A DNA stretch of 64,000 bases from Bdellovibrionales bacterium (lineage in GTDB: Bacteria; Bdellovibrionota; Bdellovibrionia; Bdellovibrionales; JAUICD01), in assembly GCA_965262715.1 (NCBI GenBank), contig OZ253553.1, positions 160,001 through 224,000 on the forward strand. Reading direction: 5' to 3'. The number at the start of each line of letters is the position of its first letter. Position 1 is the first letter of the stretch. This document shows positions 4,679 through 48,285 of the stretch, in pieces. The notes beneath the pieces were generated by a model. It made no database searches, was not told the DNA's origin, and saw only the letters and a program-made list of their open reading frames with translations. The position numbers and the translations under genes are program-made.

Positions 4679-4820
4679 TGTTTCACTAAAATGCATCTAG
4701 CCTCTGGCTACTTTCTGGCGATAACCCTGATGACTTCATCAGAAAATGGTTATCGCCTAGAAAGCTTGATGCATTTTAGTAGGGAGACTCTCCTCATTTT
4801 TTAACATCATGTTAAGGAAA
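4679..4820 (-). repeat. Family A structured element, copy A1 (candidate ncRNA / non-autonomous mobile element)
   Basis: Nested stems ACTAAAATGCATC/GATGCATTTTAGT, CTTTCT/AGAAAG, GGCGATAACC/GGTTATCGCC, CTGATG/CATCAG, TAGCC-AGA-GGCTA; TTAACAT-G-ATGTTAA leader. Confidence 0.9.
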
Positions 4821-4886
4821 CTTTCCTTTTACTATCTTTTCTCTTTCTCTCTTACAAATCACCTAAATCTTTATAGCTAATAAGAA

Positions 4887-4978
4887 TTGATGTTTTAAGC
4901 TAAAGACAATATCTTCCGCAGAGTGATCGCTACACAAGCGATCACTCGAGGACTTCGAGGCTTAGGTTAAAACATCAA
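4887..4978. repeat. Family E palindromic element (single copy in window)
   Basis: Outer stem TTGATGTTTTAA/TTAAAACATCAA; inner perfect 11-bp hairpin GAGTGATCGCT-ACACA-AGCGATCACTC (4921-4947). Confidence 0.75.
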
Positions 4979-5007
4979 GTCATTGCTTCAAAGATTTTTT
5001 CCTTGTC

Positions 5008-5154
5008 TGTATCACTAAAAATGGTCTGGCCTCTGGCCACTTTCTGACAGTAAGCCTGACAGTCTGCACTGTCAGCAAGTAGCTTACTGTCTAGAAAGCT
5101 TGACTATTTTTAGGAAGAAGATACTCCTCATTCTTTAACATCATGTTAAGGAAA
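5008..5154 (-). repeat. Family A structured element, copy A2
   Basis: Near-identical reverse complement of 17103-17251; stems GACAGTAAGC/GCTTACTGTC and CTGACAGT/ACTGTCAG. Confidence 0.9.
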
Positions 5155-5185
5155 TCATTTCTAAAAAACAATCACGCTCTATAAG

Positions 5186-6079
5186 TTAGAGCATTTTTTG
5201 GATAGAAGCTGAAATTGCCAAAGAGCTTCTTTTGCCTATATAATAACGAGGTTCTATTTTAAAAACAAGAGATTGAATATGCAACCCTAACTGAAGAGAT
5301 ACAACACCTCCAAAATTGAGCTTTGATTGCGCAGCACCTCCTCCTATGCCCATAGGATTTTCTTTTTTAAGACTCCAACGATTTACAGTAGGTCCAAGAC
5401 CAATAAAGAGAAATCCATTTTTCCCCATGATCGCATCTAATAAAAATAAAACTTGAATATCTAAAAAAATAGTTAAGTTACTCTGATAACCTTGGGGAGG
5501 AGTGAGTGTAAAATGAGTTGTGATATCCCAAACTTGAGAACTAGAAAAAAATTGAGATGCAAAGTTAAATTTTAAACCATAGGTAAGAAATTGACCTGTA
5601 TTATCAACTATATAATTGCGGTTTAAAAAATAACTTGCAGTGATCCCTGCATAAGGAATTTTTGTAAGATGAGCATCAACAGATGTATTTTTTTTCTGCG
5701 CTGGTGCCGTCCTTACCTGATTGGCCACCTTATTATCACTGTCTTGATCCTCAGATGTAGAATTAGGAGATGTTACAAGTTTCACATCTACATCTGAAAT
5801 GTATCCAACACGTTTTTCAAATTTAACACGGTAAAAAGCTCCTATAGTCTTATTGGAAATTCTAACTATTTCCCCAGCTCGCAGATAACCAAGTACGGCA
5901 CTATCAAAATTAGCTGTTTTATAAACAATAGCCCCATCTGTAAATACAGAGGCATCTTGCGCAGCTTTACTTTCTATCACAAAAGTCAATAAAAACATAG
6001 CGATGAAAGCAGTAGATATTTTACGTGATAAAATATTTTTATTTATACCATTGCTATTGGTTTTATAGATATATGACAT
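5186..6079 (-). CDS. Secreted SH3-like domain protein with probable C-terminal outer-membrane beta-barrel
   Basis: Signal peptide; GAIVYKTANFDSAVLGYLRAGE...FYRVKF..VGYISDVDV is SH3b-like; alternating beta strands at C-terminus. Confidence 0.65.
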   Translation of the reverse strand: MSYIYKTNSNGINKNILSRKISTAFIAMFLLTFVIESKAAQDASVFTDGAIVYKTANFDSAVLGYLRAGEIVRISNKTIGAFYRVKFEKRVGYISDVDVKLVTSPNSTSEDQDSDNKVANQVRTAPAQKKNTSVDAHLTKIPYAGITASYFLNRNYIVDNTGQFLTYGLKFNFASQFFSSSQVWDITTHFTLTPPQGYQSNLTIFLDIQVLFLLDAIMGKNGFLFIGLGPTVNRWSLKKENPMGIGGGAAQSKLNFGGVVSLQLGLHIQSLVFKIEPRYYIGKRSSLAISASIQKML

Positions 6080-6343
6080 CTTGATCCTAGTTGTGCTATT
6101 TATCTTTTAAACAACTCACATTTTAATTATAAGTTGTAATTGAGGAAATGTGAAAGTTTTCAAAAAAAAGAGATTGTAAACAATTTTTATTCAAAACTTA
6201 ACTTTTGTCATAAAAGTTTATTCTTTTGTCTTAAAATGGGACACTTATTGTTATATAATATTAAAAAATTGAGCGTTTCTCTTGTATAAGAATAACTCAC
6301 AAAAATTTATTATATTAAACCTTAAAAGAAAGTTGATGTTGAA

Positions 6344-7687
6344 ATGGTATTATTTCGTATATTTATTGTCTCTTTTTTCATATTGTATTGTCCTCAAGCT
6401 TTCTCAAAGATTGAAATTACAGATGTAGTAGGAGCATCTAACTGGGAATATGAGGAATATGATGGAAATAGCTTGATTATATGGGCAGGTTTAGCAGGGC
6501 CTTCAACATGTAACAATGGAGTGTGTGACAACTGTAATGGCGGATTAGGAGACTGTAACAGAAATCGTATTGACGAGGATGGTTACTTAACTATACATTT
6601 CAGATCAGATGTGAGGCCAGGTATCCCTCTCATAACAGACGCTAACAACCGATCTACACCCCTTGGTGAAAGAAATATAACAATACCAGTAAATGCAAAT
6701 GATCCAGCTTCTTCTCGAGTAGCTTGGTCACGAATTTGCACGCAACCAAATGCTGACAATTGTACAGGCAATGCACAGCTCACTCTCCTTGTAGGAATAG
6801 ATGGCAGTAATAATGGGCAAGGTAATGTAAGCTTAGATAATGATGCTGAAGATGATTCATTATCGTTTACTGTATATATCAGAAAACGACTTCCTCAGGA
6901 AGGAATCAACACATTTTCACTTTTTCCAGGGGATGAAAAAGTTATTATGCTAACCCCAGCAGATGAAGGTGCGGGAGAGTTTGGACCAAAAAAAATTGAT
7001 GAACACCCTCCTATCATATTTCCAAATGGTTTTCCAACCTATGATGGCACACGCATCACATATATCCGTTTTTACTATGTAGAAGTTCCAAACGGTGAAG
7101 AGGGCTGCAGCATCGATGAACGTGGAATTGGAAACAATTCAGATTATGTTGAAACAGAAGTGATAGATCTACTTGAAGGGAGCAGCAAGGTTGAGTTAAG
7201 TAACCTCTATTTTACAAAAACTAATCAACGTAACACATTTAAAAATAATGTCACCTATGTCTTTAAAATTGCGCTTGTAGATGAAGCAGGTAATGTTGGA
7301 CGTTTCAATACAAGTTGTGATCCTGTGACTCATGTGATAACTCCTTCAGAGGTTCATGGACTCTTACCCGGCTGTTTTATTGCAACAGCTGCCTATGGAG
7401 AATCCCACAAAATTCTAGAAACCTTTTACCAATTTCGAGATCAAAAACTACTACCTTACACCTTGGGAAAACTCATTCACAACCTTTATTATATCTATTC
7501 TCCTCCTCTAGCAAATATCATTCAAGATAATGTACTTTTAAAATACATGGCTCGCATATCACTTATCCCTTTTTGGATATATGCTTTCCTAGCCCTTCAA
7601 ATAGGACATATCTTAACCTTCTTCCTATTGGCTAGCTTTACATCAATTCTTATATATTTCTTTATAAAAAAGAATGTAATAATATAA
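6344..7687 (+). CDS. Secreted Cys-rich surface protein with CFI-box-CTERM sorting domain
   Basis: Signal peptide; GCFIATAAYG...FYQFRDQKLL...LYYIYSPPLA followed by TM helix and basic tail. Confidence 0.8.
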   Translation: MVLFRIFIVSFFILYCPQAFSKIEITDVVGASNWEYEEYDGNSLIIWAGLAGPSTCNNGVCDNCNGGLGDCNRNRIDEDGYLTIHFRSDVRPGIPLITDANNRSTPLGERNITIPVNANDPASSRVAWSRICTQPNADNCTGNAQLTLLVGIDGSNNGQGNVSLDNDAEDDSLSFTVYIRKRLPQEGINTFSLFPGDEKVIMLTPADEGAGEFGPKKIDEHPPIIFPNGFPTYDGTRITYIRFYYVEVPNGEEGCSIDERGIGNNSDYVETEVIDLLEGSSKVELSNLYFTKTNQRNTFKNNVTYVFKIALVDEAGNVGRFNTSCDPVTHVITPSEVHGLLPGCFIATAAYGESHKILETFYQFRDQKLLPYTLGKLIHNLYYIYSPPLANIIQDNVLLKYMARISLIPFWIYAFLALQIGHILTFFLLASFTSILIYFFIKKNVII

Positions 7688-7806
7688 TAAAAAAAAGCCA
7701 AAGCTATATTTAAAGAAGTGAAGAAATCCACAGAAATGAAGAATATAAATAGGTAAAAGGCTAGTTTGTAATTTTCGATGCTCTTTAATCATCAAGAGGT
7801 AACAGC

Positions 7807-9438
7807 ATGAAATGGAGCGCTGCTTCGAATCGAAATAAGAAATTAAAAAGTCTTATTGTTTTTCTATTTATATTAGAAGCTTTCTTTATTTTTTCTTCAA
7901 ATCTATCCCTAGCTCAAACAGATAAGTCATCTCCTCTTAACTTGGAAGAAGATTTAGAAATCTTTAATGAAGGTACAGTCAACGAAAATACTAAAGCCAC
8001 TCAAAATAAAAGTAATGAAGATACAAAAGCATTTGAGTCTGATTCTATTGAGATTGCAGAGGAAGATGAACTTGCTGGAGTAGAAGATGAGGCTTTAAGT
8101 AAAGATGAGGAAGTAGAAAATAATAACCAGGTAGAGGATTTGATTGATAGTGAGATGAGTTCAGATATATTAACTGATAATGAGGTCCAAGAAGAAGCAA
8201 ATGAAGAAAGTACTGAAGATATCGAACAGATAGCAAGTGATAATGAAAGTGAAGAAGAAGTTGCTGCTGAAGCCAATGAAAATATAGAAGAATCTGCTGA
8301 AACGACTCAAGAAAACATAGTGAGTGATAGTGATGAAGATACCATTGCTGATGATACACAGGAAGATACAGAAGTCATTGAAAGTATAACAGATGATACT
8401 GATGAAGGTGAAGAGGAGATTGTTCAAACAGATGAAGAAGAAAACACTGAGACCTTCGAAGATATAACTGGTAATGATGATGAAAGTGAAGAAGAAACAG
8501 CCGAAGCTGATGAAATAGAAAGTATAGAACAAGATGAGTTTATTGACATAGAAGACGAAATATTAAGTGAGGATGAACAGCCAGAAAGCTCTCCACAAGC
8601 AGAATCTTTAATTGGTAGTGAAATCAATACAGAAAATGATAACGTTTTATCACAAACTCTTGTGCAAGCAGAGGAAGTAGGTCTCTCTGCCTCTTTTATC
8701 AAGTTACCTTTTGAAGAAACTAAAGAAGAACGGCTAGCAAGACTGCAACAAGATGAGTACTTCGATGAGTTAATACATATTAGTCAAACAGGTGTACATC
8801 AATACAAGGTCACTACATCACGCATTATTGGTTCTGTCGGTTTAAATATTGGATATTTTCCAGCTCCTTCCATAAATATAGAGAACCTCACTTATGAGGA
8901 TATATATGGCAATAATTCTAATATAGCATTTTTCTTAAATTATGAATGGAAGTTTCTTAAAAAGGTAGGATCTCTTTCGCTTGTCCCAGAAATTGGGCTT
9001 TCTTGGGCTAGAGGAACCGGTCGGTTCGCGTCAGGGAGTATTAATGAAGGTGAAACTCCTAAGGAAAAGTATTTTTTATTTGTTATACCTGTTGGAGCTG
9101 GATTGATGTACCGCCTGCAATACTGGAAAAATCAAATATTCACTCCTTTTGCAATAGGCGGTGCAAGTTATTTTGTACTCTTAGAAACTAGAGATGATTT
9201 CAAATTTAGTGATCCTAAAGAAAGTCTAGCAGTGGCTGCTACTCCAGCTCTTTATTTTGGAGGTGGTATTCAACTTTCACTCGATAGTTTTTCTCGTAGA
9301 GCAATTAACACATTAGACAGAGAATTTGGAATCAATCATATCTATTTTGTAGCAGAGGTTCGACAATATTTTGGCCTTTCAAACAATTTGAACTTCACTG
9401 GCCTTGTTTTCTCTGGAGGCATTCGTGTTGATTTCTAA
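7807..9438 (+). CDS. Outer-membrane beta-barrel protein with long acidic N-terminal region
   Basis: Signal peptide, ~250-aa Glu/Asp-rich tract, amphipathic strands ending in GIRVDF (terminal Phe). Confidence 0.7.
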   Translation: MKWSAASNRNKKLKSLIVFLFILEAFFIFSSNLSLAQTDKSSPLNLEEDLEIFNEGTVNENTKATQNKSNEDTKAFESDSIEIAEEDELAGVEDEALSKDEEVENNNQVEDLIDSEMSSDILTDNEVQEEANEESTEDIEQIASDNESEEEVAAEANENIEESAETTQENIVSDSDEDTIADDTQEDTEVIESITDDTDEGEEEIVQTDEEENTETFEDITGNDDESEEETAEADEIESIEQDEFIDIEDEILSEDEQPESSPQAESLIGSEINTENDNVLSQTLVQAEEVGLSASFIKLPFEETKEERLARLQQDEYFDELIHISQTGVHQYKVTTSRIIGSVGLNIGYFPAPSINIENLTYEDIYGNNSNIAFFLNYEWKFLKKVGSLSLVPEIGLSWARGTGRFASGSINEGETPKEKYFLFVIPVGAGLMYRLQYWKNQIFTPFAIGGASYFVLLETRDDFKFSDPKESLAVAATPALYFGGGIQLSLDSFSRRAINTLDREFGINHIYFVAEVRQYFGLSNNLNFTGLVFSGGIRVDF

Positions 9439-9470
9439 TCTGTCTGATATGTACAATCAAGACACTAGAC

Positions 9471-9752
9471 ATTCTTTCTTATTAGAGTATTCTTATCTAT
9501 CTAAGATATGGCAACCCGGCACTCTGGCAGTCCGGCATGACCATTCGAGTTCAATTTTTCTATTTGAAAGCACTTTATTTGAATGCCAAGTGAGTAGGAA
9601 GTGATAAAAGCTAATGATAAGAAGGGGCAGAGGCTCGCCTCACGAGTCTGGCCTTAGGGCAATGACTTTGGATTTAAGAAAGAAATTGAAGGTCCAGCTC
9701 AATCAGTTGCCGGGAACTGTTAACTGCTTGCCCGTCTGCCGTATTGCCGGAA
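9471..9752. repeat. Family B GC-rich palindromic repeat interrupted by a family C element (~9537-9705)
   Basis: B tail and arm are an inverted copy of 11336-11402; central CAGTTGCCGGGAACTG; the C segment matches 47813-47945 plus 48117-48150. Confidence 0.8.
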
Positions 9753-9887
9753 TACTCCTATGACAAACATTTTTATATTGAAAGCTCTTTCTTATTAACT
9801 CTCTAAATTACAGTAGATGACAAAAGACAAACTCTCACAAAGGTTTTCAATATATATTTGCCCATAGAGTAGAGAAGTGATAAAGTC

Positions 9888-11195
9888 TTGAGCTTTGATA
9901 GATACTATGGAGAGTTTATGTCCTCTAAAAATACTCAGCTGCGCAAAGTATTAAATTTAAGTCAAACAGTGGGGCTTGCCATCACAGTGGTTATTGGTGG
10001 TGGTTTTTTGGTGCTTCCTGGATTGGTCTACCAAAAAATTGGTAGTTCAGCTATTTATGTATGGCTATCAGTTTCATTATTGATGATCCCGCTACTAGTT
10101 ATGGTTGCAAAACTTGGAGCTAAATACCCTTCAGCAGGAGGAGTTGCTGGTTTTATGCATAATGCTTTTTCTCGTCGTTGGGGCATGGCAACAGAAACTT
10201 TATTGATCGGAACAATAGGGCTAGCTGTCCCCGCTATTGCACTGATAGGAGGTCAATATTTTGCATTATTGTTAAATAATGATGATATTGTTTTTGAGTG
10301 CGCGCTTATATTACTTTTTGCTGCCACTATCATTAACTGGTATGGCGTAACTGTATCTGCTAATATTCAAAGAATATTGGCATTCACACTTTGTGCTGTT
10401 TTATTTGCTGTAGCTTTGATGGCTCTTGTATTTGGTGATCATACACAGGGTACTCAGCTAGCTCCAATATTTTCTTTAAAAACATGGTCGGAGGCACTTC
10501 CAGCAACTGCATTGGTATTTTTTGCATTCACAGGGTGGGAAGAGTTGCCGGCGATGTCAGAGGAATATCAAAATCCACAACGTGATTTTCCACTATCTAT
10601 TGCAATTAGCTTTGTTGTTGTTGTCTTATTGTATTTTCTGGTGGCTATAGCTACCCAGTTGACTCTATTACAATCTGATCCACAAATTGCGATAGCTCCT
10701 ATTGCTCTTTTATTAAATTTTACTATTGGTCCATTAGGTACAATCTTCATCTCAATCATTGCGGTTCTTATTATTTTCACACATTTGATTAGTGCTGTTT
10801 GGGTAACTTCCCGCATTATCTTTTTTTCTGCTCGTGAAGGCCTATTGCCCAAATATTTTGTTTCATTAAATTCTTCTTATCAAGCACCTCGTCCCGCTAT
10901 TTTACTATGCATACTTATTTTCATTTCTGTACTATATGTTTATCTTATAGGACTTCTAAACTTAGAAAGCATATTAAAACTTTCTGGACAAAACTTCTTC
11001 TTTTTATATGCCTTGTGTACAGCAGTGTACCTTAAACTTGCAAATAAGATGACAGAATATATACTTAGTGTCATTGGATTGCTGATTATTTTATCAATGA
11101 GTATTGTTTTTGGATGGATGGTATTGTATCCATTATCATTTCTATTTATTGGATTTATCATCTCTCATCTTATTGATGTAAAAAACAAGAATTAA
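9888..11195 (+). CDS. APC-family amino acid permease (YjeH-like); start probably ATG at 9918
   Basis: About 12 TM helices; IGGG, YPSAGG, FFAFTGWE, EEYQNPQRDFP motifs. Confidence 0.85.
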   Translation: MSFDRYYGEFMSSKNTQLRKVLNLSQTVGLAITVVIGGGFLVLPGLVYQKIGSSAIYVWLSVSLLMIPLLVMVAKLGAKYPSAGGVAGFMHNAFSRRWGMATETLLIGTIGLAVPAIALIGGQYFALLLNNDDIVFECALILLFAATIINWYGVTVSANIQRILAFTLCAVLFAVALMALVFGDHTQGTQLAPIFSLKTWSEALPATALVFFAFTGWEELPAMSEEYQNPQRDFPLSIAISFVVVVLLYFLVAIATQLTLLQSDPQIAIAPIALLLNFTIGPLGTIFISIIAVLIIFTHLISAVWVTSRIIFFSAREGLLPKYFVSLNSSYQAPRPAILLCILIFISVLYVYLIGLLNLESILKLSGQNFFFLYALCTAVYLKLANKMTEYILSVIGLLIILSMSIVFGWMVLYPLSFLFIGFIISHLIDVKNKN

Positions 11196-11210
11196 TGGCA
11201 TAGATATTTC

Positions 11211-11402
11211 TTAGAAGCTATCTTAAAAATAAGGTTTGTATTTTGCTTTTGCGAATTAAAGCTGAAATAGCAAATCACTGTTATACCGGGATATGGCATT
11301 CCGGCATTCTGGCAATGAAGTTCCCGGCAACTGCTTGCTGGACTGCCGGATTCCCCGACTGCCAGATTCCGGATAGATAAAGATACTTTAATAAGAAAGA
11401 AT
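11211..11402. mobile_element. MITE-like remnant: D-type terminal arm plus family B repeat
   Basis: Starts TTAGAAGCTATCTTAAAAATAAG; the ~70-bp arm is homologous (inverted) to 36080-36151 and 39005-39078; B core AAGTTCCCGGCAACTG. Confidence 0.7.
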
Positions 11403-11494
11403 ATCCAGCTTATAAAATAGAAGTGTTACCTATTGCCTTGAAGAATTTGTTATCTATGTCTCTTGGTAAGACCAAATAATGAGGTAAATAAAAA

Positions 11495-11531
11495 AATACC
11501 TTCAGTTATAAAACTGAAGGTATTATTTTTT
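11495..11531. terminator. Intrinsic terminator, probably bidirectional
   Basis: 13-bp stem AATACCTTCAGTT-ATAA-AACTGAAGGTATT with A/T runs on both sides, between convergent genes. Confidence 0.85.
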
Positions 11532-11583
11532 CTTAAATTAATGGGTAGTATTTATCAAACTATCTCCACCATTTAATTATCAA

Positions 11584-13284
11584 CTACTGCTGCTTAGGAG
11601 CTTCTACTACTGCAGGATCTACATTACCAGCAGCAGGATCTACATTACCAGCAGCAGGATCTACATTACCAGCAGCAGGATCTACATTACCAGCAGCAGG
11701 ATCTACATTACCAGCAGCAGGATCTACATTACCAGCAGCAGGATCTACATTACCAGCAGCAGGATCTACATTACCAGCAGCAGGATCTACATTACCAGCA
11801 GCAGGATCTACATTACCAGCAGCAGGATCTACATTACCAGCAGCAGGATCTACATTACCAGCAGCAGGATCAGCAGTTACATCAGGATCAGCAGTTACAT
11901 CAGGATCAGCAGTTACATCAGGATCAGCAGTTACATCAGGATCAGCAGGTGCTATTACTACAGCAAAATCATTAAGTTCAAAACTATGTCCAGTAGCAAC
12001 TGTTGCCATCATAGCAATTCCATCATCATCAGTCATAGCAATTCCTTGATCATTAGTCATAGCTATATCTTTAAGTAATTCAAGAACAAGAGAGAATCCT
12101 TCACCATTAACGTTTCTTGTTAGTAAACGAGCACTGTAAGCTGTACCATCTTCATCAGTAAGACCTTCAAGAGAAGTAATTATACCACTCAAGTCGTCCT
12201 CTTCTAGTACACTACCCATTGCATTTGGATCAAGGCCATTACCATCTTCACCAATTGCTCTTCTAAAACTGTCTCTAGCCTCTGTAGCACTACCATCTGC
12301 CATTTCAGTAACATGAGAGATGATAATAGGATCAGCATCTGTTTTTGATAACTCAACCCAGATTGATCCTTCATAACTCAAATCTGTTGCCTCATTAAAA
12401 TTGCTCATATCTTCATCTGTAGTCAACCAAACTGCTTGAGTAATAGTCACATAACCATTTCTTTCACTAAGAAGTGTCTCAAGTTCATTTTCTGCATTTC
12501 CTTCACCTCCGTTAAACATATTTCTATAATCACGTATTGGACCGAAGTGTAATACAAAACGAGAGTTCAATGCACCATTGATTGTTGCTACTGTCTCACT
12601 TGCGACTTTCCCTTCTTCTATTACGATAAGTCCTTCAAGTGATTTAGTTGGTACAACAATCTCTTCAAATTCAATGTAGTGATTTGCAAGATAACCATCT
12701 GCTTCATATCGAAGAAGCCTAGCGGTATCTTCAGTAAAATCTGCTACTTTACCCTCTTCATTGGAAGGTAAAATATAAGTTGCATCTGCAGTCTCTATTT
12801 TGTTACTCAAATCATAATATTCATCACCTATAGACAATCCATTCACAACATTATTAGAAAGATCACGCATAACAGAGATATCGAGTTGATAATTCTCATC
12901 ATCATCATAATTTACAAGGTAAGCCTTAGCCTCTTCTTCTTCTGCTTCTATTGATGGTGTTGCCTCTACATTAGGTGCGCCCGTTGCTTTTATTTCAGCT
13001 TGCAGTTGTGCTCTAGCAACATCTTGAGATACTACACTCTCATCATTTAGGAAGCTCTCAAATACATCCCCTGATAGTTCAGGTGGAATATGTACAGCAT
13101 TTTTTGCACTGTATCGACTGGAATTATTCTTATCAAAATTAGCATTACTTAACTTAAGGTTGTTAGCTCGCCTCTGAATTTCATTAGGCTGATTTGTACC
13201 TGATGGGGAACATCCCGTCATCATAATTAATGCGCTCGTTATACCTAAAAGTGAAAGAATGGTTGATGGTGATTTTGCTCTCAT
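11584..13284 (-). CDS. Acidic lipoprotein with C-terminal tandem repeats
   Basis: Lipobox-like MMTGC; (DPDVTA)x4 and (DPAAGNV)x12 at C-terminus. Confidence 0.75.
   Translation of the reverse strand: MRAKSPSTILSLLGITSALIMMTGCSPSGTNQPNEIQRRANNLKLSNANFDKNNSSRYSAKNAVHIPPELSGDVFESFLNDESVVSQDVARAQLQAEIKATGAPNVEATPSIEAEEEEAKAYLVNYDDDENYQLDISVMRDLSNNVVNGLSIGDEYYDLSNKIETADATYILPSNEEGKVADFTEDTARLLRYEADGYLANHYIEFEEIVVPTKSLEGLIVIEEGKVASETVATINGALNSRFVLHFGPIRDYRNMFNGGEGNAENELETLLSERNGYVTITQAVWLTTDEDMSNFNEATDLSYEGSIWVELSKTDADPIIISHVTEMADGSATEARDSFRRAIGEDGNGLDPNAMGSVLEEDDLSGIITSLEGLTDEDGTAYSARLLTRNVNGEGFSLVLELLKDIAMTNDQGIAMTDDDGIAMMATVATGHSFELNDFAVVIAPADPDVTADPDVTADPDVTADPDVTADPAAGNVDPAAGNVDPAAGNVDPAAGNVDPAAGNVDPAAGNVDPAAGNVDPAAGNVDPAAGNVDPAAGNVDPAAGNVDPAAGNVDPAVVEAPKQQ
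11612..11936. repeat. Perfect coding tandem repeat: 12 x 21 bp plus 4 x 18 bp
   Basis: GCAGGATCTACATTACCAGCA x12 (11612-11863), then CAGGATCAGCAGTTACAT x4. Confidence 0.95.
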
Positions 13285-13325
13285 GATTGCCTCCTTAAAA
13301 GGGTAATTTAATTAAAATACATAAA

Positions 13326-14310: not shown

Positions 14311-14456
14311 TGTATCACTAAAAATGAACTGGCCTCTGGCCATTTTTGGATAGTAAGCCTGACGATTTGCATCGTCAGAAAATGCTGACTATCTCAAAAA
14401 TCTGTTCATTTTTAGTAAACAGATACTTCTTATTTCCTAACACCATGTTAAGGGAA
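14311..14456 (-). repeat. Family A structured element, copy A3
   Basis: ACTAAAAATGAAC/GTTCATTTTTAGT, TTTTTG/CAAAAA, CTGACGAT-GCAA-ATCGTCAG; followed by a D-type end TTTTTGAGATGGCTTCAA at ~14484-14501. Confidence 0.9.
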
Positions 14457-15855: not shown

Positions 15856-15970
15856 CCTAAATTCTCAAACTACTGCTTTAAAAATAACCTTTACTTAGAC
15901 AACCCTTTTTATACAAGAAATTAGAGGTAATAGGTACAAACGTTTATAGACTTTTACTGAAACAGCACGA

Positions 15971-16131
15971 TTCCCTTAACATGATGTTAAATAATGAGGA
16001 GTATCTCGTTTACTAAAATGCAGCAGGCTTTCTAGGTAGTCAGCTATTTGCTGACGATGTGAACCGTCAGGCTGACTACCAGAAAGTCGCCAGAGGCTTG
16101 CCTCGAGAGGCGACATGCATTTTAGTGAAAA
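15971..16131 (+). repeat. Family A structured element, copy A4 (extended last hairpin)
   Basis: GGTAGTCAGC/GCTGACTACC, CTGACG/CGTCAG, TCGCC..GAGGC-TT-GCCTC..GGCGA. Confidence 0.9.
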
Positions 16132-17015: not shown

Positions 17016-17092
17016 TTCTAGCATTCGGGCAAGCTGGCAATTAGTTGCCGGGAACCGTTTACCGGAGTGCCGGATTGCCCGATTCCCGGAGA
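17016..17092. repeat. Family B GC-rich palindromic repeat
   Basis: GGGCAAGCTGGCAA-TTAGTTGCCGGGAACCG-...TGCCGGATTGCCCG; adjoins copy A5. Confidence 0.75.
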
Positions 17093-17102: not shown

Positions 17103-17251
17103 TTTCCCTTAACATGATGTTAAAAAATGAGGAGTATCTTCTTCCTAAAAATAGTCAAGCTTTCTAGACAGTAAGCTACTTGCTGACAGTGCAGACTGTC
17201 AGGCTTACTGTCAGAAAGTTGCCAGAGGCCAGAGGCATTTTTAGTGATACA
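17103..17251 (+). repeat. Family A structured element, copy A5
   Basis: Near-identical to A2 (inverted) and A7. Confidence 0.9.
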
Positions 17252-29633: not shown

Positions 29634-29879
29634 TTAAAACTCATCTCAAAATTACTTCTAATATCCACGTTGTCAAAACAACCTCTTACTTAAGTACCAT
29701 ATAAAAGGACTGTTTCACTCAAAATGGACCTTTCCGGCTTTCCGTAGGGCCACTATCGTGGCTCTCGTCAAGTCCGTCCATTTTGAGTAAGAAGCCATCT
29801 TTCTTTAGTTATATTATGTTTTGTATTTTGCAATTTTGTATTATTTACCGCTATCATGTATTTTTGAAATGGCTTCTAA
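29634..29879. mobile_element. Complete ~246-bp MITE-like element between secE and nusG, carrying A6
   Basis: Ends TTAAAACTCATCTCAAAA and (reverse complement) TTAGAAGCCATTTCAAAA; the right end contains the secE TAG. Confidence 0.7.
29711..29820 (-). repeat. Family A structured element, divergent short copy A6
   Basis: Perfect outer stem ACTCAAAATGGAC/GTCCATTTTGAGT followed by GAAACA; shortened interior. Confidence 0.7.
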
Positions 29880-33092: not shown

Positions 33093-33227
33093 TTTCCTTA
33101 ACATTTTGTTAAAAAATGAGGAGTATCTTCTTCCTAAAAATAGTCAAGCTTTCTAGACAGTAAGCTACTTGCTGACAGTGCAGACTGTCAGAAAGTTGCC
33201 AGAGGCTAGACCATTTTTAGGGATACA
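33093..33227 (+). repeat. Family A structured element, copy A7 (12-bp internal deletion)
   Basis: Matches A5 but lacks GCTTACTGTCAG, deleted between CTGTCAG direct repeats. Confidence 0.9.
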
Positions 33228-33228
33228 G

Positions 33229-33343
33229 CATCTCCCTACTCAAAATAAACGGATTTTTGAGGCAGTTAGCTATTTGCTGAAGGCGCGAGCCTTTAGGCTA
33301 ATTGCCCAAAAATGACCAGAGGTCAGTTTATTTTGAGTGATAC
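33229..33343 (+). repeat. Family A structured element, copy A8 (tandem with A7, no leader)
   Basis: ACTCAAAATAAAC/GTTTATTTTGAGT, GGCAGTTAGC/GCTAATTGCC, CTGAAGGC-GCGA-GCCTTTAG, TGACC-AGA-GGTCA; GATAC end touches the rpoN stop. Confidence 0.9.
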
Positions 33344-39078: not shown

Positions 39079-39089
39079 TAAGTAACAGT

Positions 39090-40800: not shown

Positions 40801-40832
40801 ACTCATTAATTAAGTGGTTTATTAAGTAGGCA

Positions 40833-41978
40833 ATGAAAAGAAGGTATAGAAGATATATGAAAAGAAAGTGGTATTTTATAAGGTTTGTGTTTTTAGGTTT
40901 TATTTTGAGTTCAACAGAAGGACTTTCTCAACGAACTTTAACTTCATACAATTTAGAATATATGTCTAGTTGCTACGACCGCTTGACTATGCCTTACACA
41001 GCTGTTGTAGACACACATTTGCATTTTCGCCCTTTTGCTGTCAGTGCAGCTCCTCCATTTGAAGAAGTGGTGCAATACCTTAGAGATGCAGGTGTGCTTT
41101 TTGCAAATATTTATGGGATTGGCCAAGTATTGCCGGCCACTTCATCTTGTGCAGACCTTACTTCATGTGTAAGCATACCTATCAGACCCAGCTTTCGAAA
41201 CGACATACTCAATGCTGAAAATTTAACAAAATGGAGAATATCAAATCAAACAAATGGAAATCGAAACGTTCATTTTGTCTTAGCTATGACATTTCCTGAT
41301 CTATCAGACCCTTCTTCAGTGTTATCTGGAATCCATCTTTTAGACAGAGAATATTCACAAAGGTTATTTCGCTGGATGGGTGAAGTGAATTTAGTAAAAG
41401 AGTTTCTTTTTAATCGTGGGATGGAAGCTGTTCCAAAATCTAAAGTCCCTGAATGGCAGCCCTTTATGACTGTTCTGCGAGAAAGAAATATTCCGTTAGC
41501 AATTCACTCTGATTTAGGCAATGACAATGACCCTACAAAATATATCTCTTGGATGGAAGAAGTCTTACAGTTATATCCAGACAATAAAATTGTTTGGATG
41601 CATGCAGGAATATCTATAAGATTAACCAAAATGGATGTAGATCAGCATATTGAAGTGCTCAGCTCCTTTTTAGATAGGTTTCCTCACCTCATGCTTGATT
41701 TTTCATGGTATATTCTTAATGATTATTATTTGTCTCCCAACGAAATTAATCAAACTAAGTATGTAGATTTCATCAATCAATATTCTACACGTATTTTACC
41801 AGGCACAGATTTTATAGCTACCAACAAAAGAGATTTTAGTTCCTACTTAAAAGAACTTGAACTAACAAGTTGGATTTACCAGTATGTCAGTGACGAAGCT
41901 TTTAGAAATATTGCCTTAGGGCAGAATTATTTTCGATTTACAAACTTATCATTTCGAGCTCCACGCATCTGCCAATAA
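40833..41978 (+). CDS. Secreted amidohydrolase-family protein
   Basis: VDTHLH, MGEVNL, IHSD, WMHAG, ILPGTDF. Confidence 0.8.
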   Translation: MKRRYRRYMKRKWYFIRFVFLGFILSSTEGLSQRTLTSYNLEYMSSCYDRLTMPYTAVVDTHLHFRPFAVSAAPPFEEVVQYLRDAGVLFANIYGIGQVLPATSSCADLTSCVSIPIRPSFRNDILNAENLTKWRISNQTNGNRNVHFVLAMTFPDLSDPSSVLSGIHLLDREYSQRLFRWMGEVNLVKEFLFNRGMEAVPKSKVPEWQPFMTVLRERNIPLAIHSDLGNDNDPTKYISWMEEVLQLYPDNKIVWMHAGISIRLTKMDVDQHIEVLSSFLDRFPHLMLDFSWYILNDYYLSPNEINQTKYVDFINQYSTRILPGTDFIATNKRDFSSYLKELELTSWIYQYVSDEAFRNIALGQNYFRFTNLSFRAPRICQ

Positions 41979-42238
41979 CTAAGTGATCTCTTTTATTTCT
42001 CTTACTTTTTTTATTTGCTATTGACTTTTGCAAAAGAGTATGGTTTAAGAAACAACAACAGCAAAAAGATTATACAAATGGAGTTATAACAAAAACATTA
42101 CTTTCTAAGGGTCAACCACTTTCTTATTTTATTGATCTTATTCAAGTACAAGCCTGATATCTATGTACCTCTGAGCCTATCTAATTCTTTATAAGCTTTC
42201 GTTTTTTTATAATTATTTAAAATTGAAAGAGGTGTACT

Positions 42239-42712
42239 GTGAACTTATTTAAGTTGAATATATGTATTTTAGTATGTTTCATTGCAGTTAATGTGAATGC
42301 TGACTTGTTTTGCAATCGTGAATATTGGAGAAATACGACACAACCTGACGTAGAATATATGCTAAATTCACAAGAATATGATCAGATTCAAGATGAACAA
42401 CAACTTATCTATGATTTGACATTTCTTTATGAGGAGTGTGAAGAAGGCCAAGAAAAACCCATCCAAATCCTGAAAAGAGAGGCAAGCCTTGATGTACAAA
42501 AATATCTTATGTGTGAAATAACCAGTGAAGTTAACTCTCTTAATGCTTTTTTTACAAGGATTATGGATCCATGGTATTGGACTGGATGTATATTGTATGA
42601 ACTAAGAGAAAGCTGTGAACAAGAAGCTATTTCTTCTTCAATAGGTGGCAAATTGGTATGTCAAGAACCACTAGTAAGATGGAATAGCGTTTTTGGTGGT
42701 GGTAGCAGATAA
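42239..42712 (+). CDS. Hypothetical secreted Cys-containing protein
   Basis: Signal peptide ending VNA; GAGGT RBS. Confidence 0.65.
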   Translation: MNLFKLNICILVCFIAVNVNADLFCNREYWRNTTQPDVEYMLNSQEYDQIQDEQQLIYDLTFLYEECEEGQEKPIQILKREASLDVQKYLMCEITSEVNSLNAFFTRIMDPWYWTGCILYELRESCEQEAISSSIGGKLVCQEPLVRWNSVFGGGSR

Positions 42713-43319
42713 AAGAGTATTTTATCTTCAATAGCGTTAGAAATTGTCCTTACTATTATTAATTAACTGTAACAATATAAATAATATCGTTTTGGATAAT
42801 AATATAGGATTTGAAATTGTAAATTGCTCTGATAATGTTTGTGCATATCTATGTTGTTTTTGTTCATTAATTATTATTAAGAGGTAACAAAAACTTAGAT
42901 TCATTTCAAGCAAAGCCTACTAGACATTTTCACAAACATATCACACATTATATGATCAAATACAACTCACATCAGCTTTGCTGCACAAACATGTATGGAA
43001 AGAAAAGATACTTGTGGTAAGCTTATGAACTAACTCTTATCCAGTGTTTTAGAAGATAAATTTTATAAAAAAGTTATCACAAAAATATTTTTTCTAAGCA
43101 TTGCATTATACTTAAAATTTCCTTATTTACAATTTAAAAGTTCTAATGACAAAACAAGATGAATTGCCTTAAAAAATCATGTAAAAAATACAATATTTAC
43201 AAATATAACTTGTAAATATTACAAACTTATATTTAAAGCTTGTATACACGATCTTGTTAAGATATATTAATTTATCAAAATACTATATATCTATTGTGTT
43301 GTATTATAGAGGAAAAATT

Positions 43320-44075
43320 ATGATAAAAAACTTTTTATATACAGGTCTATGTTTAATATTGTTAACTTCAATAGAAGCGATAGCTTATGAACCATCTGTT
43401 CAGAATTCTTTTGATCAACAAGATACATTTGATTTTAATAACACAACAGATATAGATATTGAGGAATATATTGACACAGAGGAAGCACCAGCTCATGGAC
43501 ATGGACCTAGGCGACATCGACGGCAGGGACGTTGTTGTCATCCTGTGACTGTACCTGTTGGACCACTTGTTTGGCAATATTATTGGGGATATTGGAGATG
43601 GTATCAACCCACTACTGTTGTGCAGGATTGTCATATTGTTATTATAGAGAGACCTGATCCTCCTCGTCGTCCTCGCCCTCGACCTCCACGACGTCCTCGT
43701 TACCCACATCCTTCTGACCATGTTGAAGATACCTATTGTGATCAGCTTAGAAGAAGTATCAGAGGTATGAGAGATAACTCACTATTTAATGCCATATGTA
43801 ATGGCCACGACCTTACTGTCGAAAACTTATTAAATAGAGGAAGCCATTATGTAAATGAAAGAGGGTTTACTGGAGAAAATGCTCTCATCCTAGCTACCAA
43901 ATTAGATGATATGCGTATTGTACGTTTGCTCATTCAAGATTTTGACGCAAATGTATGTCTGACTCATCAAGGCCTTATGGCAGTAGATTGGGCTTATGAA
44001 CTTGAACATGAACGTATGTTTCGATACTTAGAAAGAAGATCATCTCATTGCTTTGATGATTTTAGAAGACGATAG
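43320..44075 (+). CDS. Secreted Pro/Arg-rich protein with C-terminal ankyrin repeats (paralog of 48388)
   Basis: Start set at ATG 43320 after a GAGGA RBS; GENALILA...IVRLLIQDFDANV ankyrin; N-terminus matches 48388. Confidence 0.8.
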   Translation: MIKNFLYTGLCLILLTSIEAIAYEPSVQNSFDQQDTFDFNNTTDIDIEEYIDTEEAPAHGHGPRRHRRQGRCCHPVTVPVGPLVWQYYWGYWRWYQPTTVVQDCHIVIIERPDPPRRPRPRPPRRPRYPHPSDHVEDTYCDQLRRSIRGMRDNSLFNAICNGHDLTVENLLNRGSHYVNERGFTGENALILATKLDDMRIVRLLIQDFDANVCLTHQGLMAVDWAYELEHERMFRYLERRSSHCFDDFRRR

Positions 44076-44184
44076 CTTTATTAGGAGCTGTTTACCTTTT
44101 GAAGTTTTATCTTAAACGACTTAGTGTTGTATAAAATGAAAAAGCAATTATCGTTTTGAGTAAAATAACTGTATTTATTCTTAT

Positions 44185-45140
44185 TTATAATACAGCTTCT
44201 ATACATTCTTGCTGTTTCTGTTCTTCATTCTGTATTTCCTTTTCCTTATACGTATTGGATTTTAACACCTCTATAGTAGCAAAGTGACTACCAGAGGAAA
44301 AAATTGCGCTAATAGGAGCAAACAACAAGGAGAAACCATTAGACATAGTCTCTGATTGTCTGTTTTCAGCAATCATTAGAGCTGTTCTACCGTATTTATC
44401 TCTTTTATATGGTCTGCCCCTGCCTCTATAAGAGTTTTTACTAAATTCGAATGATTGCGATCACTACGGCTAATCACCATTAACGCTGTTTCACCATTTA
44501 CATCTGGAATATTAGGATTTGCTTCTTGTTTCAATAACATGTCAACAATAGTTTCACTATAATTATTTCTAACAGCTTTTATCAATGCCGTTTGAGTATT
44601 CTCACTATTTTGCGCATTAGGATCTGCCCCATAAGCTAAAAGCATTTCAACATATTTAGGATCAGCATTTTCAGCAGCTCATGTTAATGGTGTGTCACCA
44701 TACTTATCTCGAATATCAATATCTATTTTTGCATCTAATAACATTTTAGCAATATCAAGTTTGTTGTATCTCATTGCTAAAGCTATAGGTAATCTGCCAT
44801 ATTGATCATGAATAAAATTTGGATCTGCTCCTCTCTCTAACAACATACCCACAAAATCTATATTACCCCATAAAATAGCTGCTTCTAAAGGTGTCATAGG
44901 AGTAGAAAGAAAATTCAGGAAACCGGTGCCTATGTCTGGCACATTAAGATCAATCTTAGAGTTTATCAATTTATAAGCTTCATCAAGTTTATTATTTTGA
45001 ATACTAGTTATGAGAAGCTGTCTATTACGACGATTATGGTTATCATCATGCTTTGCGTAAGAAATAGTATTATTTATTAGAGAGAGAAAGATCGAAGAAA
45101 TACACAATTTTAAAAGAAAACAACCTTGTGATTCTTTCAT
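44185..45140 (-). pseudogene. Secreted ankyrin-repeat protein broken by an in-frame TGA (44679) and a 1-nt deletion (~44412)
   Basis: GDTPLT-TGA-AAENADPKYVEMLL continues in frame; GAD|PYKRDKYGRTALMIA continues in a shifted frame. Confidence 0.85.
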
Positions 45141-45304
45141 TAATCAACTCACCACTATCATACAAGTTTTTAGAGCAAGAAAAATTTCATATCAATGATA
45201 AAAAATATAATAGAATGCAACAAAATAACTTTCAAGGCATTTTTTATGAACTTTGCGTTATACATACCTAGAGCCCATCTCAAACTTTTATAAATAACTG
45301 CTTT

Positions 45305-45444
45305 TTTGGGCAATCCAGTAACAAGCCTCTGAAATAGTGGCCAGATTGCCAAATGCTAGATATCTTAAGCAACCAAGATTTATCATTTTAGTTCTTAACG
45401 TGTGTTATATAATACAAAAACTTATTTTGTCAGACCGCTTCTAA
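45305..45444. mobile_element. Degenerate family B repeat plus D-type end
   Basis: GGGCAATC...GATTGCC arms; ends TTTTGTCAGACCGCTTCTAA, whose inverted match TAGCAGCGGTCTGACAAAA is at 51015. Confidence 0.55.
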
Positions 45445-45481
45445 ATAGGATTGATGAATTCCCTATCAGTCTCTTTATAAT

Positions 45482-47677
45482 CTAAAGATTATTACGAAGT
45501 AACAAAATTAATAAGGATATGACCAAACCGATACAAGCAAAAGCCATCTTATAATAATAAGTATAGGCCCTTGATGTGTGATGTGATGATTGGATAGTTT
45601 TTACTTCTATAGAAGGAATAGGTGATCTACGATACCAACCTTTAACTGTAACCTCCTGTCTTTGAAACTTCTTAAAATGGAAGATACCAAATAGAATGTT
45701 AAGCCCAAAAGGTTCATGATCGAGAAAGATCAGCCCTGTCTTATCCTTAAGGAAAAAATCTTCAGAGAAAATTGATCCAGCAATTCCTCTTCCTAAAATA
45801 CGACCTTTTAGAACCACCGGATAAGAGCAAACAGGAGATACTTTCACTACTTTTAAAAGAGCTGCAATAGAGCAAGGGAAAAAACTTCCCTCACCTGGAT
45901 ATGCTTTTAAAACTCTGATCAAAGCTCCTATAGATACACATAAGATAAAAGTTGCAAATAAAGAAATAAGAGAAACCCAATCAGAACCATTAAACATGCT
46001 CCACATTTGAAGTAATGTGATCTGGTTAAACACGCTATATGATACAATACCTAAAACACCTAAGATATATGGCAGAAATACAATAAATAAATCAAAGAAG
46101 AAATCATCCCAATAACTTTCTGGCTTCCGCTTGTTAAATAAAAGGTAGGGTTCTTGATTTAAAGATAGAGCATAAGAACTAATAGCATTTATTCTCTTGG
46201 CTGTAAGAGGATGAGTGGAGTTCAGTTCATAGTAAGACGCCCAAGGATTCCAAAGATCCCATCTCATAATATCTTTTATAGATTCAGGATTATACATATC
46301 TTCAGATTCTGTTCCTTGTTGGAGAAGAGATAGCTGTTGAGATATTGAAGCACTCGCAATGTTAAAAGCTTCTACACTTTGAGCTGCTTGAGATTTCCTT
46401 TTTTGATTTTTCTTTTCTAAACTATTTGTAGCATGACCTAAGTTTTTTAATTGTTGTGTTACTGCTTGAGTTGCAATGTCTCGTCTTCTCCTCACCGAAC
46501 GTTGCCTAGAAGGATTGACCTGCTTAGAATCCTCTTGCATAGAAGAGGGGTCTAATAAACCGTAGGAAATTTTAACCAGTGCTGTTAACAAAGCATTTGG
46601 TTTTTTTGTGGCAAAACAACTAAACCGATCTGCATAATATTCTCTTGCCCTAGAGACAAAAAGTACTAAATACTCAGAAACCAAGTAAGAGACATAACTA
46701 ACAACCATAACAGCAATAATGTCTTTTCTCCCCTTTGACTCCCGAACGGCTTCCCTAAAGTAATCAAAAATATTGTATAAAATAATAGGTACAATCTTTA
46801 TGACAGTCATTAAGGCAAAGTCCCAATGTTTAATATGTCCTAATTCATGAGCTAAAACAGATTCTAATTCATCTTGATCAAGTAATTGAAACATTCCTTC
46901 GGAAAAAACAACTCTTGCGCTATAAGGAGTTCTACCATATGTATATGCCTGAGGAGATTGATCTCGAATAATTCCTATTCTAGGAGTAGGTATACGATTA
47001 TTACGACAAAGCTTCATCAAAGAATCTTGAAAGTGGGCAGGAAGGTCTTTAAATAAAACCCAATCTAAAGATCCAAAAAGTCTTAATTGCCAATCTAAAA
47101 AGATAGGGCCAAAGTAAAATTGCAATAAAACAAAAATGATAAGGACAATAGAACCAGCCCAAACAGGTAACGCTGTCATTTCCATTGCAAAAACTATCAC
47201 TCCAAATAATAAACCATAAAGAGAAAGTAGAACCATTCCAGAAGTTAAAGCTAAAGACGGCATGCGGGCAGGAACAACCATTTTATTTTGAGCAATTTTT
47301 TTAGAAATAAAAGTGTCTTCTTGAATTTTTTTAAATGATTTATCTTTTTGAATATTCTCAAATTCCTGAGCATCAAGGTAAATGCCACGGCAAGAAGAAC
47401 ATTCTTCAACTTGATAGGAAAATCCTGGAAACTTACCTGCTTGCATAGAAGCATTGTCACATTTTGGACATTTGGCAGATATACGTTGAGATCGATCTAA
47501 ACCAAAATGCAAATATTGTTTTAAAATAGTACGATCTTTAATGAAAAAATTAACTTCACCATAATCCAGCCACACACCTCGACAAGAGGGGCAAACGTCA
47601 ATCAATACTCCCTTTTTTGTCAAAACAGATCGCATCTGTTTTGTACACTTTAAGCATTTAATAGTTTTTTGATCCAT
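45482..47677 (-). CDS. HtpX-like M48 zinc metalloprotease with two N-terminal zinc ribbons
   Basis: CxxC...CxxCRGVWLD twice; PQAYTYG; AHELGH; SRAREYYAD; STHPL. Confidence 0.88.
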   Translation of the reverse strand: MDQKTIKCLKCTKQMRSVLTKKGVLIDVCPSCRGVWLDYGEVNFFIKDRTILKQYLHFGLDRSQRISAKCPKCDNASMQAGKFPGFSYQVEECSSCRGIYLDAQEFENIQKDKSFKKIQEDTFISKKIAQNKMVVPARMPSLALTSGMVLLSLYGLLFGVIVFAMEMTALPVWAGSIVLIIFVLLQFYFGPIFLDWQLRLFGSLDWVLFKDLPAHFQDSLMKLCRNNRIPTPRIGIIRDQSPQAYTYGRTPYSARVVFSEGMFQLLDQDELESVLAHELGHIKHWDFALMTVIKIVPIILYNIFDYFREAVRESKGRKDIIAVMVVSYVSYLVSEYLVLFVSRAREYYADRFSCFATKKPNALLTALVKISYGLLDPSSMQEDSKQVNPSRQRSVRRRRDIATQAVTQQLKNLGHATNSLEKKNQKRKSQAAQSVEAFNIASASISQQLSLLQQGTESEDMYNPESIKDIMRWDLWNPWASYYELNSTHPLTAKRINAISSYALSLNQEPYLLFNKRKPESYWDDFFFDLFIVFLPYILGVLGIVSYSVFNQITLLQMWSMFNGSDWVSLISLFATFILCVSIGALIRVLKAYPGEGSFFPCSIAALLKVVKVSPVCSYPVVLKGRILGRGIAGSIFSEDFFLKDKTGLIFLDHEPFGLNILFGIFHFKKFQRQEVTVKGWYRRSPIPSIEVKTIQSSHHTSRAYTYYYKMAFACIGLVISLLILLLRNNL

Positions 47678-47761
47678 GATATCTATTATACAGTAATTTT
47701 TTGATTTGTACTGCTTAACCCTACACTATATAGAAAAGTGTATATAAACATTTCAAAATAC

Positions 47762-48285
47762 TAAGGGCTGTTGCCGTTTCGAGATAAGGAGGACGGATCC
47801 ATTCCATTAGGTATGACCATTCAAGTTCAACTTTTTCAATTTGCAAGCACTATATTATATGGATTAAAAAAAATAGATGGTGATAAAAACCAATGATAAA
47901 AATGGGCAGAGGCTCGCCTTACGAGTCTGGCCTCAGGGCAATGATGAGTAGGAATGAATTTAATTGATTTCCCTAACATAGTATAAAAAAATGAAGAGTA
48001 TCTCCCTTACTCAAAATGAATATGTTTTCTGGGCAATAAGCTATTTGCCGACAGCGAAAGACTGTCGGGCTTATTGCCAGAAAACCGCCAGAGGCGGGTT
48101 CATTTTGAGGGAAACAATTCAAGAAGGAAAATGAAGGTCCAGCTCAATCAAGGCCATCCGGAATCGGTTACCCGGAACTGATAACAGTTTGCTAGATTGC
48201 CCGCTTACCGGACCTCGGAAAAAAAGAGAGCTTAACTGGTCATGAACCTATTTTTATACTTGCTGTGAATGACAACAACCTCTAA
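47762..48285. mobile_element. Nested composite element: F end, C left part, A9, C right part, B, F end
   Basis: Left TAAGGGCTGTTGCCGTTTC; right (reverse complement) TTAGAGGTTGTTGTCATTC; interior matches families A, B and C. Confidence 0.75.
47968..48116 (+). repeat. Family A structured element, copy A9
   Basis: CTCAAAATGAAT/GTTCATTTTGAG, GGCAATAAGC/GCTTATTGCC, CCGACAG-CGAAAGA-CTGTCGG, CCGCC-AGA-GGCGG. Confidence 0.9.

Follow-up and report, generated by a model that had tools for sequence, protein, structure and literature searches.

Copies of a structured repeat in the window

We analyzed a 64,000-nucleotide stretch of a Bdellovibrionales genome (assembly GCA_965262715.1, contig OZ253553.1, positions 160,001 to 224,000; here called the window), which carries dispersed copies of a 147-nt noncoding element that folds into a three-way junction and is a mobile repeat. 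The genome holding the window (G000; 2.94 Mb, 33.6% GC) was compared with a second genome of the same genus (G001), the estimated completeness of both being 90 to 93%. An initial annotation had described nine copies with their stems, and all nine are present in the window; as the size of the whole family, nine does not hold, since 473 matches occur genome-wide. Eight of the nine were matched by a profile hidden Markov model (HMM) at E values of ≤3.4e-26, and the ninth (29711..29827) was missed by the HMMs and found by a covariance model (E = 2.2e-6).

On the minus strand, the full copy at 4679..4820 comprises the leader, the 13-bp outer stem, the 6-bp and 10-bp stems, the apical and C-AGA-G side hairpins, and the GAAAC end, and an extra 3' module recognized by its sequence (4659..4678, minus), a piece running from the side loop to GAAA, is fused directly to its 3' end. 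Between this copy and the next full one (5008..5154, minus), which has a 3-nt 5' extension and a target resembling the element's own 3' end, lies another structured repeat, family B, with a purine-rich 5' extension (4821..5007, minus). The 5008 copy sits inserted in the head of the family B repeat, an empty paralog of which occurs at G000:2726805. Family B itself numbers about 60 copies per genome by motif count, makes composites with the element, and also occurs within IS30 copies of G000, in their right end. Further full copies lie at 14311..14456 (minus), at 15971..16131 (plus), at 17103..17251 (plus), and at 47968..48116 (plus). The 15971 copy has a duplicated side hairpin and no target-site duplication, and its 19-nt 5' extension (15952..15970, plus) is missing at empty paralogous sites (G000:11936 and 791564); likewise, the 22-nt 5' extension of the 47968 copy (47946..47967, plus) is missing at the empty paralogous site G000:654849, with about 5 target bases lost. 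The 17103 copy is almost identical to the 5008 copy, and upstream of it is a degenerate arm of 7-nt repeats (17024..17090, plus; limits approximate), by sequence of the type that flanks four-helix-bundle genes. The copy at 29711..29827 (minus) represents a variant subfamily with about 10 relatives in G000, in which the outer stem and the GAAAC end are kept, the inner stems differ, and the leader is missing. Finally, the copy at 33093..33227 (plus) has lost one arm of its 10-bp stem through a 13-nt internal deletion and is followed head to tail, after its 3' end, by a 5'-truncated leaderless copy (33229..33343, plus) that ends at the stop codon of a convergent sigma-54 gene.

A search of the window against Rfam gave no match at a meaningful score (one match at E = 3.2 overlaps a single copy), in agreement with the novelty initially claimed, and no Rfam ribozyme class was matched by the window copies. 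The cores of hammerhead, twister, and hairpin ribozymes, compared by eye, were unsupported as counterparts. A full-text literature search, which left subscription journals mostly outside its coverage and excluded supplements, found no published description of the family, and TIGR02436, the protein family of a gene associated with the element (see below), was named in none of the papers covered.

Conserved fold and covariation

The element consists of a 40-nt leader beginning with TTTCC(T/C)TAACAT, a three-way junction, and a closing GA(A/G/T)AC. The junction is formed by the 13-bp outer stem, a 3-nt linker, a long arm (6 bp, a bulged A, 10 bp, a T-rich bulge, and a 7-bp apical hairpin), and a 5-bp side hairpin whose loop reads C-AGA-G in 322 of 351 copies. 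In an alignment of 24 copies, 96.6% of the cells were paired, versus 36 to 48% when the partners were slid, and both sides were altered in 29 of the 41 pairs; the 15 best-scoring covarying column pairs were all predicted base pairs. In a tree built with 351 distinct copies (149 of G000 and 202 of loci L006 to L085), 313 of 336 simultaneous double changes led from one Watson-Crick pair to another, compared with 1 to 10 such changes for slid partners and a mean of 10 (maximum, 43) for shuffled ones. DNA folding of seven window copies on the given strand yielded z-scores of -4.7 to -9.7, and none of 200 shuffles reached the same stability. Thus, the covarying multi-stem fold proposed from the window is conserved, with double changes keeping the pairing far above the controls.

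As for the further proposal that the structure is under selection, the very high rate of double changes may in part stem from the swapping of modules or from palindrome correction and not from selection alone. Double changes are numerous next to single ones (336 versus 605), and the stem modules reassort freely, with 109 combinations among 149 copies. These two features would also be expected if no dedicated enzyme existed and the fold itself provoked nicks or polymerase stalls, host template-switch repair then copying the element to micro-homologous sites and correcting its palindrome arms. The insertion targets, which often resemble the element's own end, and the fact that no enzyme was found (see below) favor the same explanation. 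However, near-invariant unpaired positions, namely, the leader motif C-C-Y-TAACAT (98 to 100% conserved) and the C-AGA-G loop, point to a specific reader, and the family is restricted to one genus-level lineage, so that we regard repair without a dedicated enzyme as improbable.

Copy number, distribution, and mobility

Copies were counted as non-overlapping profile HMM matches, with the reversed genome as a control. G000 contained 473 matches, making up 2.1% of the genome (reversed genome, 0), and G001 contained 1,348, making up 6.0%; the G001 copies are younger, with a median nearest-neighbor identity of 94%. A Bdellovibrionales metagenome-assembled genome record (OZ241865.1), whose genes are about 71% identical to those of G000, is also rich in copies, with at least 80 loci. 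When run over 150 genomes of the order, the covariance model matched only 3, and exact-pattern scans of viral and metagenome contigs gave 0 matches. In the third genome (G004), 9 of the 11 leaders lie on three contigs with 83 to 93% identity to G000, leaving only two independent genomes with the family. These contigs (C1, C4, and C11; L123 to L125) are syntenic with G000 even though G004 is assigned to another genus, and they are probably misbinned from a sister species or otherwise represent bin contamination. The family is confined to one genus-level lineage.

The element is a mobile repeat rather than an RNA gene at fixed loci, since its positions are not shared between genomes and empty paralogous sites exist. 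Among 1,122 orthologous gene pairs of G000 and G001, only 24 had a copy at the same position and in the same orientation, versus 18 expected. At two sites, copies present on the G004 contigs are missing from G000, and three window copies (5008, 15971, and 47968) have paralogous counterparts without an insertion. Assembly contigs from three runs that joined across the 15971 copy were discounted as evidence of same-locus polymorphism, the host sequence itself being repeated. Orientation was mixed both to genes (90, 59, 57, and 51 among 257 loci), as first noted from the window, and to replication (146 versus 130 among 276 loci), and neighboring copies were head to tail in 179 of 187 pairs. Together, the empty sites and the hundreds of copies support the initial suggestion of a non-autonomous mobile element that needs a factor in trans.

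The other initial suggestion, a functional RNA, fared worse. A structured regulatory or RNase-processing signal kept at many loci for the benefit of the host would fit the strong covariation and the S10 ribosomal operon site, which is occupied in both G000 and the G004 contigs (by different arrays). Nevertheless, shared positions hardly exceed expectation, gene context is not conserved, genes and a CRISPR array are interrupted by insertions, the two congeneric genomes differ threefold in copy number, and the loops agree with DNA better than with RNA (see below), which makes such a role very hard to credit. In the S10 operon of G000 (G000:C1:2842754-2843519), a four-copy array duplicates the last rpsQ codons, and the end of rpsQ appears overwritten by its duplicated version. 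Elsewhere, copies are inserted within the repeats of an apparent Cas12a CRISPR array and have been duplicated along with it (G000:C1:2607210-2608435).

Insertion footprint

The two ends of the element differ, as the 3' end, GTGAAAC, is sharp and the 5' side carries a variable extension. Target duplications of ≥6 nt were missing in 212 of 277 full copies, and no fixed duplication of 2 to 9 nt stood out; the longer flank matches were mostly repeats of 13 to 150 nt within (flank+element)n arrays, which sometimes mix subfamily members. Some caution is warranted in arguing from this footprint, because missing target duplications are described as often stemming from adjacent deletion or recombination (PMC11708052).

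Abutment to genomic boundaries was likewise one-sided. The 3' end of the element met the CCA ends of tRNAs on the opposite strand at 5 of 38 tRNAs in G000 (0.06 expected) and 2 of 37 in G001 (0.14 expected), and among convergent genes, it coincided with the stop codon in 15 of 317 cases in G000 (3.6 expected) and 26 of 673 in G001 (8.1 expected); none of 300 simulations reached the observed values. No excess was observed for the 5' end at any tested boundary. We read the 3' end as reactive, joining nearby DNA and giving rise to deletions that halt at the ends of essential genes, to upstream duplications, and to extra 3' modules; an alternative reading of the abutment is priming by tRNA or transcript ends.

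Empty and filled sites were compared for 261 chains in G000 and 540 in G001, most of which had no empty paralog. Of the 22 filtered pairs of G000, 18 had a 3' junction ≤8 nt from the element end, and 4 had a 5' junction that close. The cleanest pair involves a four-helix-bundle gene of G001, in which the filled allele shows an 18-nt extension, the element, and the target straight after GAAAC, with a few target bases lost. In general, the junctions show 0 to 5 extra bases and micro-homology, GAAAC is supplied by the element rather than pre-existing in the target, and ahead of the leader, the inserted units have bases missing from the empty sites.

The folded strand

That one strand is the folded one, as initially suspected, is supported by an excess of G.T over A.C pairs on the plus strand and by a one-stranded loop motif. 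The excess (137:78 and 115:74) is real, albeit moderate and drawn from counts that are not independent. As for the apical loops, the GNRA-like character first assigned to them applies to most, two window loops reading AAGT and GCAG instead; overall, they follow G-N-N-A, with many that are not GNRA (30 of 155 in G000 and 233 of 616 in G001). The loop motif GCGNNAGC occurred on the plus strand of 564 of 705 distinct copies in G001 and on the minus strand of 2, and on the plus strand of 53 of 265 copies in G000 and the minus strand of 0; 195 of the 564 GCGNNAGC loops in G001 were not GNRA. According to PMC13037366, this motif forms an exceptionally stable DNA mini-hairpin that is much weaker as RNA, resists single-stranded DNA-binding protein, and occurs at the phage G4 and ssiA priming sites, so that the element resembles single-strand priming signals of the G4 ori or ssi type in its one-strand mini-hairpin. 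The presence of GCGNNAGC on one strand only thus favors single-stranded DNA over RNA as the recognized molecule, although with a GNRA majority it may yet be RNA.

Association with a four-helix-bundle gene

Both G000 and G001 contain a multicopy gene for a four-helix-bundle protein of 99 to 101 amino acids (TIGR02436; similar to PDB 2GSC), a family described as homologous to Avd, the accessory protein of diversity-generating retroelements (DGRs) (PMC10053308). The paralogs have a pN/pS of about 0.25, indicating purifying selection, and the gene is flanked by 7-nt repeats in both genomes. In the 23S intervening sequence of Coxiella, a four-helix-bundle gene (S23p/IVP) is also reported with 7-nt repeats (PMC4990558). 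The element and the gene are closely associated in G001, where a same-strand copy lies within 250 nt of 25 of 28 gene ends (4.5% expected), heptamers precede 179 of 733 full copies (background, 1.7%), and the element leader also heads the heptamer arms upstream of the gene. Moreover, the gene is interrupted by the element near codon 67 in both G000 and G001, and within the taxonomic family, both genomes without the element are also without the gene. On this circumstantial evidence, no coding unit is linked to the element more tightly than the four-helix-bundle gene, which is its best candidate partner.

In other genomes and loci, four-helix-bundle genes form divergent head-to-head pairs (L266, L270, L272, and L287 to L289; G035, G031, and G025) that flank a palindromic stem carrying both ribosome-binding sites. 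The element leader resembles the reverse complement of the gene starts in G025, which we treat as a lead only. Thirty-four copies of a unit with four-helix-bundle fragments and a fixed 20-bp motif at its end occur in G021 (L298 to L327). This unit, which has a fixed GAAC end, was rejected as a parallel to the element, as its end abuts the end of a transposase-like open reading frame (ORF) and caps both sides; the end reads like an ISL3 inverted repeat, and we take the unit to be probably an ISL3-like transposon derivative.

Search for the mobilizing enzyme

The initial annotation had proposed an HUH transposase or a reverse transcriptase (RT) acting in trans, which the enzyme inventory does not bear out. 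G001 gave no match to Y1, RAYT, IS91 Y2, Rep_trans, or IS110 profiles and no RT by profile or six-frame search (best E, 0.2). In G000, one IS200-type Y1 transposase, with no full copy of the element beside it, and three unrelated RTs (one of a group II intron, one broken, and one of a retron) were detected. RAYT had 0 matches in either genome, the IS110 recombinase was found in 0 of 5 genomes, and IS91-type Y2 was above the cutoff in 0 of 5 genomes and likewise in none of the controls; the Rep_1 search matched nothing anywhere, controls included, and is hence uninformative. The mobilizing enzyme would therefore likely not be a usual transposase or RT found in the G001 chromosome.

IS256 and IS1634 occur in both genomes, and long duplications of the IS1634 type in G000 suggested the latter as a mobilizer. 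A classical miniature inverted-repeat transposable element (MITE) moved by a DDE transposase, its leader and GAAAC end being degenerate inverted repeats, would also agree with the two ends being alike over 9 to 11 bp in many G001 copies and with the 8 of 187 neighbor pairs that lie heads inward with the GAAAC ends outermost. Nonetheless, among the ends listed and as read by eye, those of IS1634, IS30, IS5, IS3, IS1595, and IS256 mismatch the element, there is no fixed target duplication, and the inserted units include bases upstream of the leader that are missing at empty sites. We therefore consider a DDE-type MITE quite unlikely, and more so than repair without an enzyme.

A retro-element resembling short interspersed nuclear elements (SINEs) deserves somewhat more attention, doubtful as it is. 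In this scheme, read-through transcripts ending at GAAAC would be reverse transcribed by an RT primed at the 3' end of the target or at a tRNA CCA end, and template jumps would make the arrays and extra modules. Consistent with this scheme, the 3' end is fixed while the 5' side varies, and the junctions show micro-homology and extra bases; the junctions at tRNA CCA ends, the GNRA majority with its G.T excess, the homology of the linked gene product to the DGR protein Avd (PMC10053308), and the group II intron and retron RTs of G000 agree with it as well. Against it, G001 has no RT despite its younger copies, 195 of the 564 GCGNNAGC loops there are not GNRA, and the 3' end is not enriched at terminator-like sites in G000 (0 of 317; 1.7 expected), the corresponding count in G001 being 10 of 673 versus 3.6 expected.

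Several other candidates were set aside. Rpn (PD-(D/E)XK) nuclease genes are expanded, with 37 ORFs or fragments in G000 and 87 in G001; in G001, about half are accompanied by a copy no more than 300 nt away on a given side, and such copies occur on either side and strand and show no polarity. As a mobilizer, Rpn was rejected on its 16 matches in G003, a genome without the element. Of five genomes, only the two rich in the element have a large Cas12-like gene; it belongs to a type V CRISPR locus that includes an array of its own, and in G000 no element copy occurs within 9 kb of it. GIY-YIG was represented by single matches only, in ORFs of 612 to 653 amino acids (UvrC in G000). Apart from these, six shared proteins carry an HUH-like motif.

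The type V loci (G000:C1:2589828-2601755; G001:C1:235349-244554) include Cas12a, Cas1, and Cas2 together with a second protein of 1,325 to 1,334 amino acids, which is 50% identical between G000 and G001, has a Cas12-type zinc ribbon, and is possibly a divergent second effector; its C-terminal 904 amino acids were matched by no NCBIfam model. Also in G000, the retron RT, of the St85 family, is fused to an effector domain in one 590-amino-acid ORF (G000:C1:2650522-2652294, minus), and four tandem 88- to 89-bp tRNA-Trp-like copies with an altered anticodon loop precede an intact tRNA-Trp (G000:C1:2198524-2198955).

Proposed mechanism of mobilization

We propose, with a probability of roughly 0.55, that the element is a noncoding mobile repeat that is copied as folded single-stranded DNA and that a trans-acting enzyme inserts via the fixed 3' end. 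The plus strand would be released in single-stranded form and fold into the three-way junction, and its GAAAC(A) end would first be joined to the target, in many cases a neighboring stretch of DNA or another repeat. Attachment of the 5' side would be imprecise, about 5 to 25 nt upstream of the invariant leader, usually at the cost of a few target bases. Joining of the same 3' end upstream would create (flank+element)n arrays, joining inside another copy would add extra 3' modules, and joining downstream would cause a deletion that proceeds until the end of an essential gene halts it. A bolder and distinctly tentative version, which we hold to be doubtful, makes the element the rider of a system free of transposase and RT, in which an Avd-like four-helix-bundle protein would act with a host polymerase or primase, and the folded single-stranded DNA would be copied to new sites via its 3' end.

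Several results weigh against these proposals. No mobilizing enzyme was found, and it could sit on an unbinned plasmid or phage given the completeness of the genomes. Polarity was less evident in G001, where the filtered pairs gave 21 of 40 for the 3' junction versus 13 of 40 for the 5' junction, and an unfiltered symmetric empty-site test gave 19:6 in G000 but 35:56 in G001 (pooled P = 0.52). Isolated copies shared their upstream and downstream flanks about equally (13 versus 16 of 60 in G000; 24 versus 24 of 54 in G001). Owing to the reversed G001 result and these similarly shared flanks, the flank tests alone do not prove polarity, which the independent abutment test supports. With regard to the molecule, GNRA loops remain the majority (125 versus 30 in G000; 383 versus 233 in G001), and the three opposite strands tested folded about as well as the given strands. 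As for the partner, a downstream copy was found at only 1 of 26 four-helix-bundle gene ends in G000, and the gene is more widespread than the element (24 of 61 relatives versus 3); given this low count and wider occurrence, the gene may be cargo or target, so that all three roles (partner, cargo, or target) are to be considered.

Comparison with known systems

REPINs are small hairpin repeats moved by RAYT Y1 transposases (Bertels and Rainey 2011, PMC3116915). As described there, they share with the element their noncoding hairpin nature, hundreds of intergenic copies, presumed movement in trans as single strands, clusters that arise by insertion into or beside existing copies, and tandem flank-plus-element units. 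They differ in being doublets of short repetitive extragenic palindromic sequences (REPs), whereas the element is a 147-nt three-way junction with a separate leader. The element is also asymmetric in that only one of its ends is sharp, the 5' side having a variable extension. RAYT is missing in G000 and G001, and in place of two inverted REP palindromes there is a single branched fold.

IS91 and ISCR rolling-circle elements have one fixed end, a variable other end with captured flank, no target duplication, and tandem multimers. The element is comparable in part, its fixed and variable ends being seen in G000 and, in G001, weak or absent by the flank tests and present by the abutment test. It differs in bringing GAAAC itself and, on the Y2 transposase, falls outside the group, with 0 of 5 genomes positive (the controls being negative as well). 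The Coxiella-type genes share the protein family and 7-nt repeats with the multicopy genes of G000 and G001, which are tied to the element in G001; unlike that intervening sequence, the element has no ORF, lies outside rRNA, and is far more numerous. Eukaryotic SINE-like retro-elements show 3'-anchored insertions, variable 5' ends, and micro-homologous junctions, but the element has no cognate RT in G001, a DNA-type loop signature, and neither a poly(A) tail nor a target duplication. Folded repeats of 100 to 160 nt in narrow lineages also include Rickettsia palindromic elements, ERIC, and further MITE-like sequences of prokaryotes; here, in contrast, there is no terminal inverted repeat pair with a fixed duplication, the fold is branched with near-complete compensation, and copies hardly ever lie in frame inside genes, ORFs being overlapped at only 6 of 276 loci. 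In summary, the element works like REPINs yet fails the tests for REPIN/RAYT, DDE MITE, IS110, and a retro-element with a resident RT.

Significance

Small folded repeats are common in bacteria, and most are traceable to a known transposase. The element described here is genuine and has a strong structure, a narrow distribution, and an unexplained mechanism; it occupies 6% of a chromosome in which the usual mobilizers are undetectable, and its one-ended footprint is unusual. If it is only the relic parasite of an HUH enzyme that has been lost or that sits in unbinned sequence, it would represent one more REPIN-like family. If the enzyme is new, the element would offer a short, defined substrate for finding it (147 nt, hundreds of natural variants, and known junctions) and possibly a handle on the role of Avd-like four-helix-bundle genes outside DGRs. 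Should the four-helix-bundle reading be true, it would provide a mechanism for the widespread four-helix-bundle/heptamer cassettes, together with a natural substrate of 1,000 copies.

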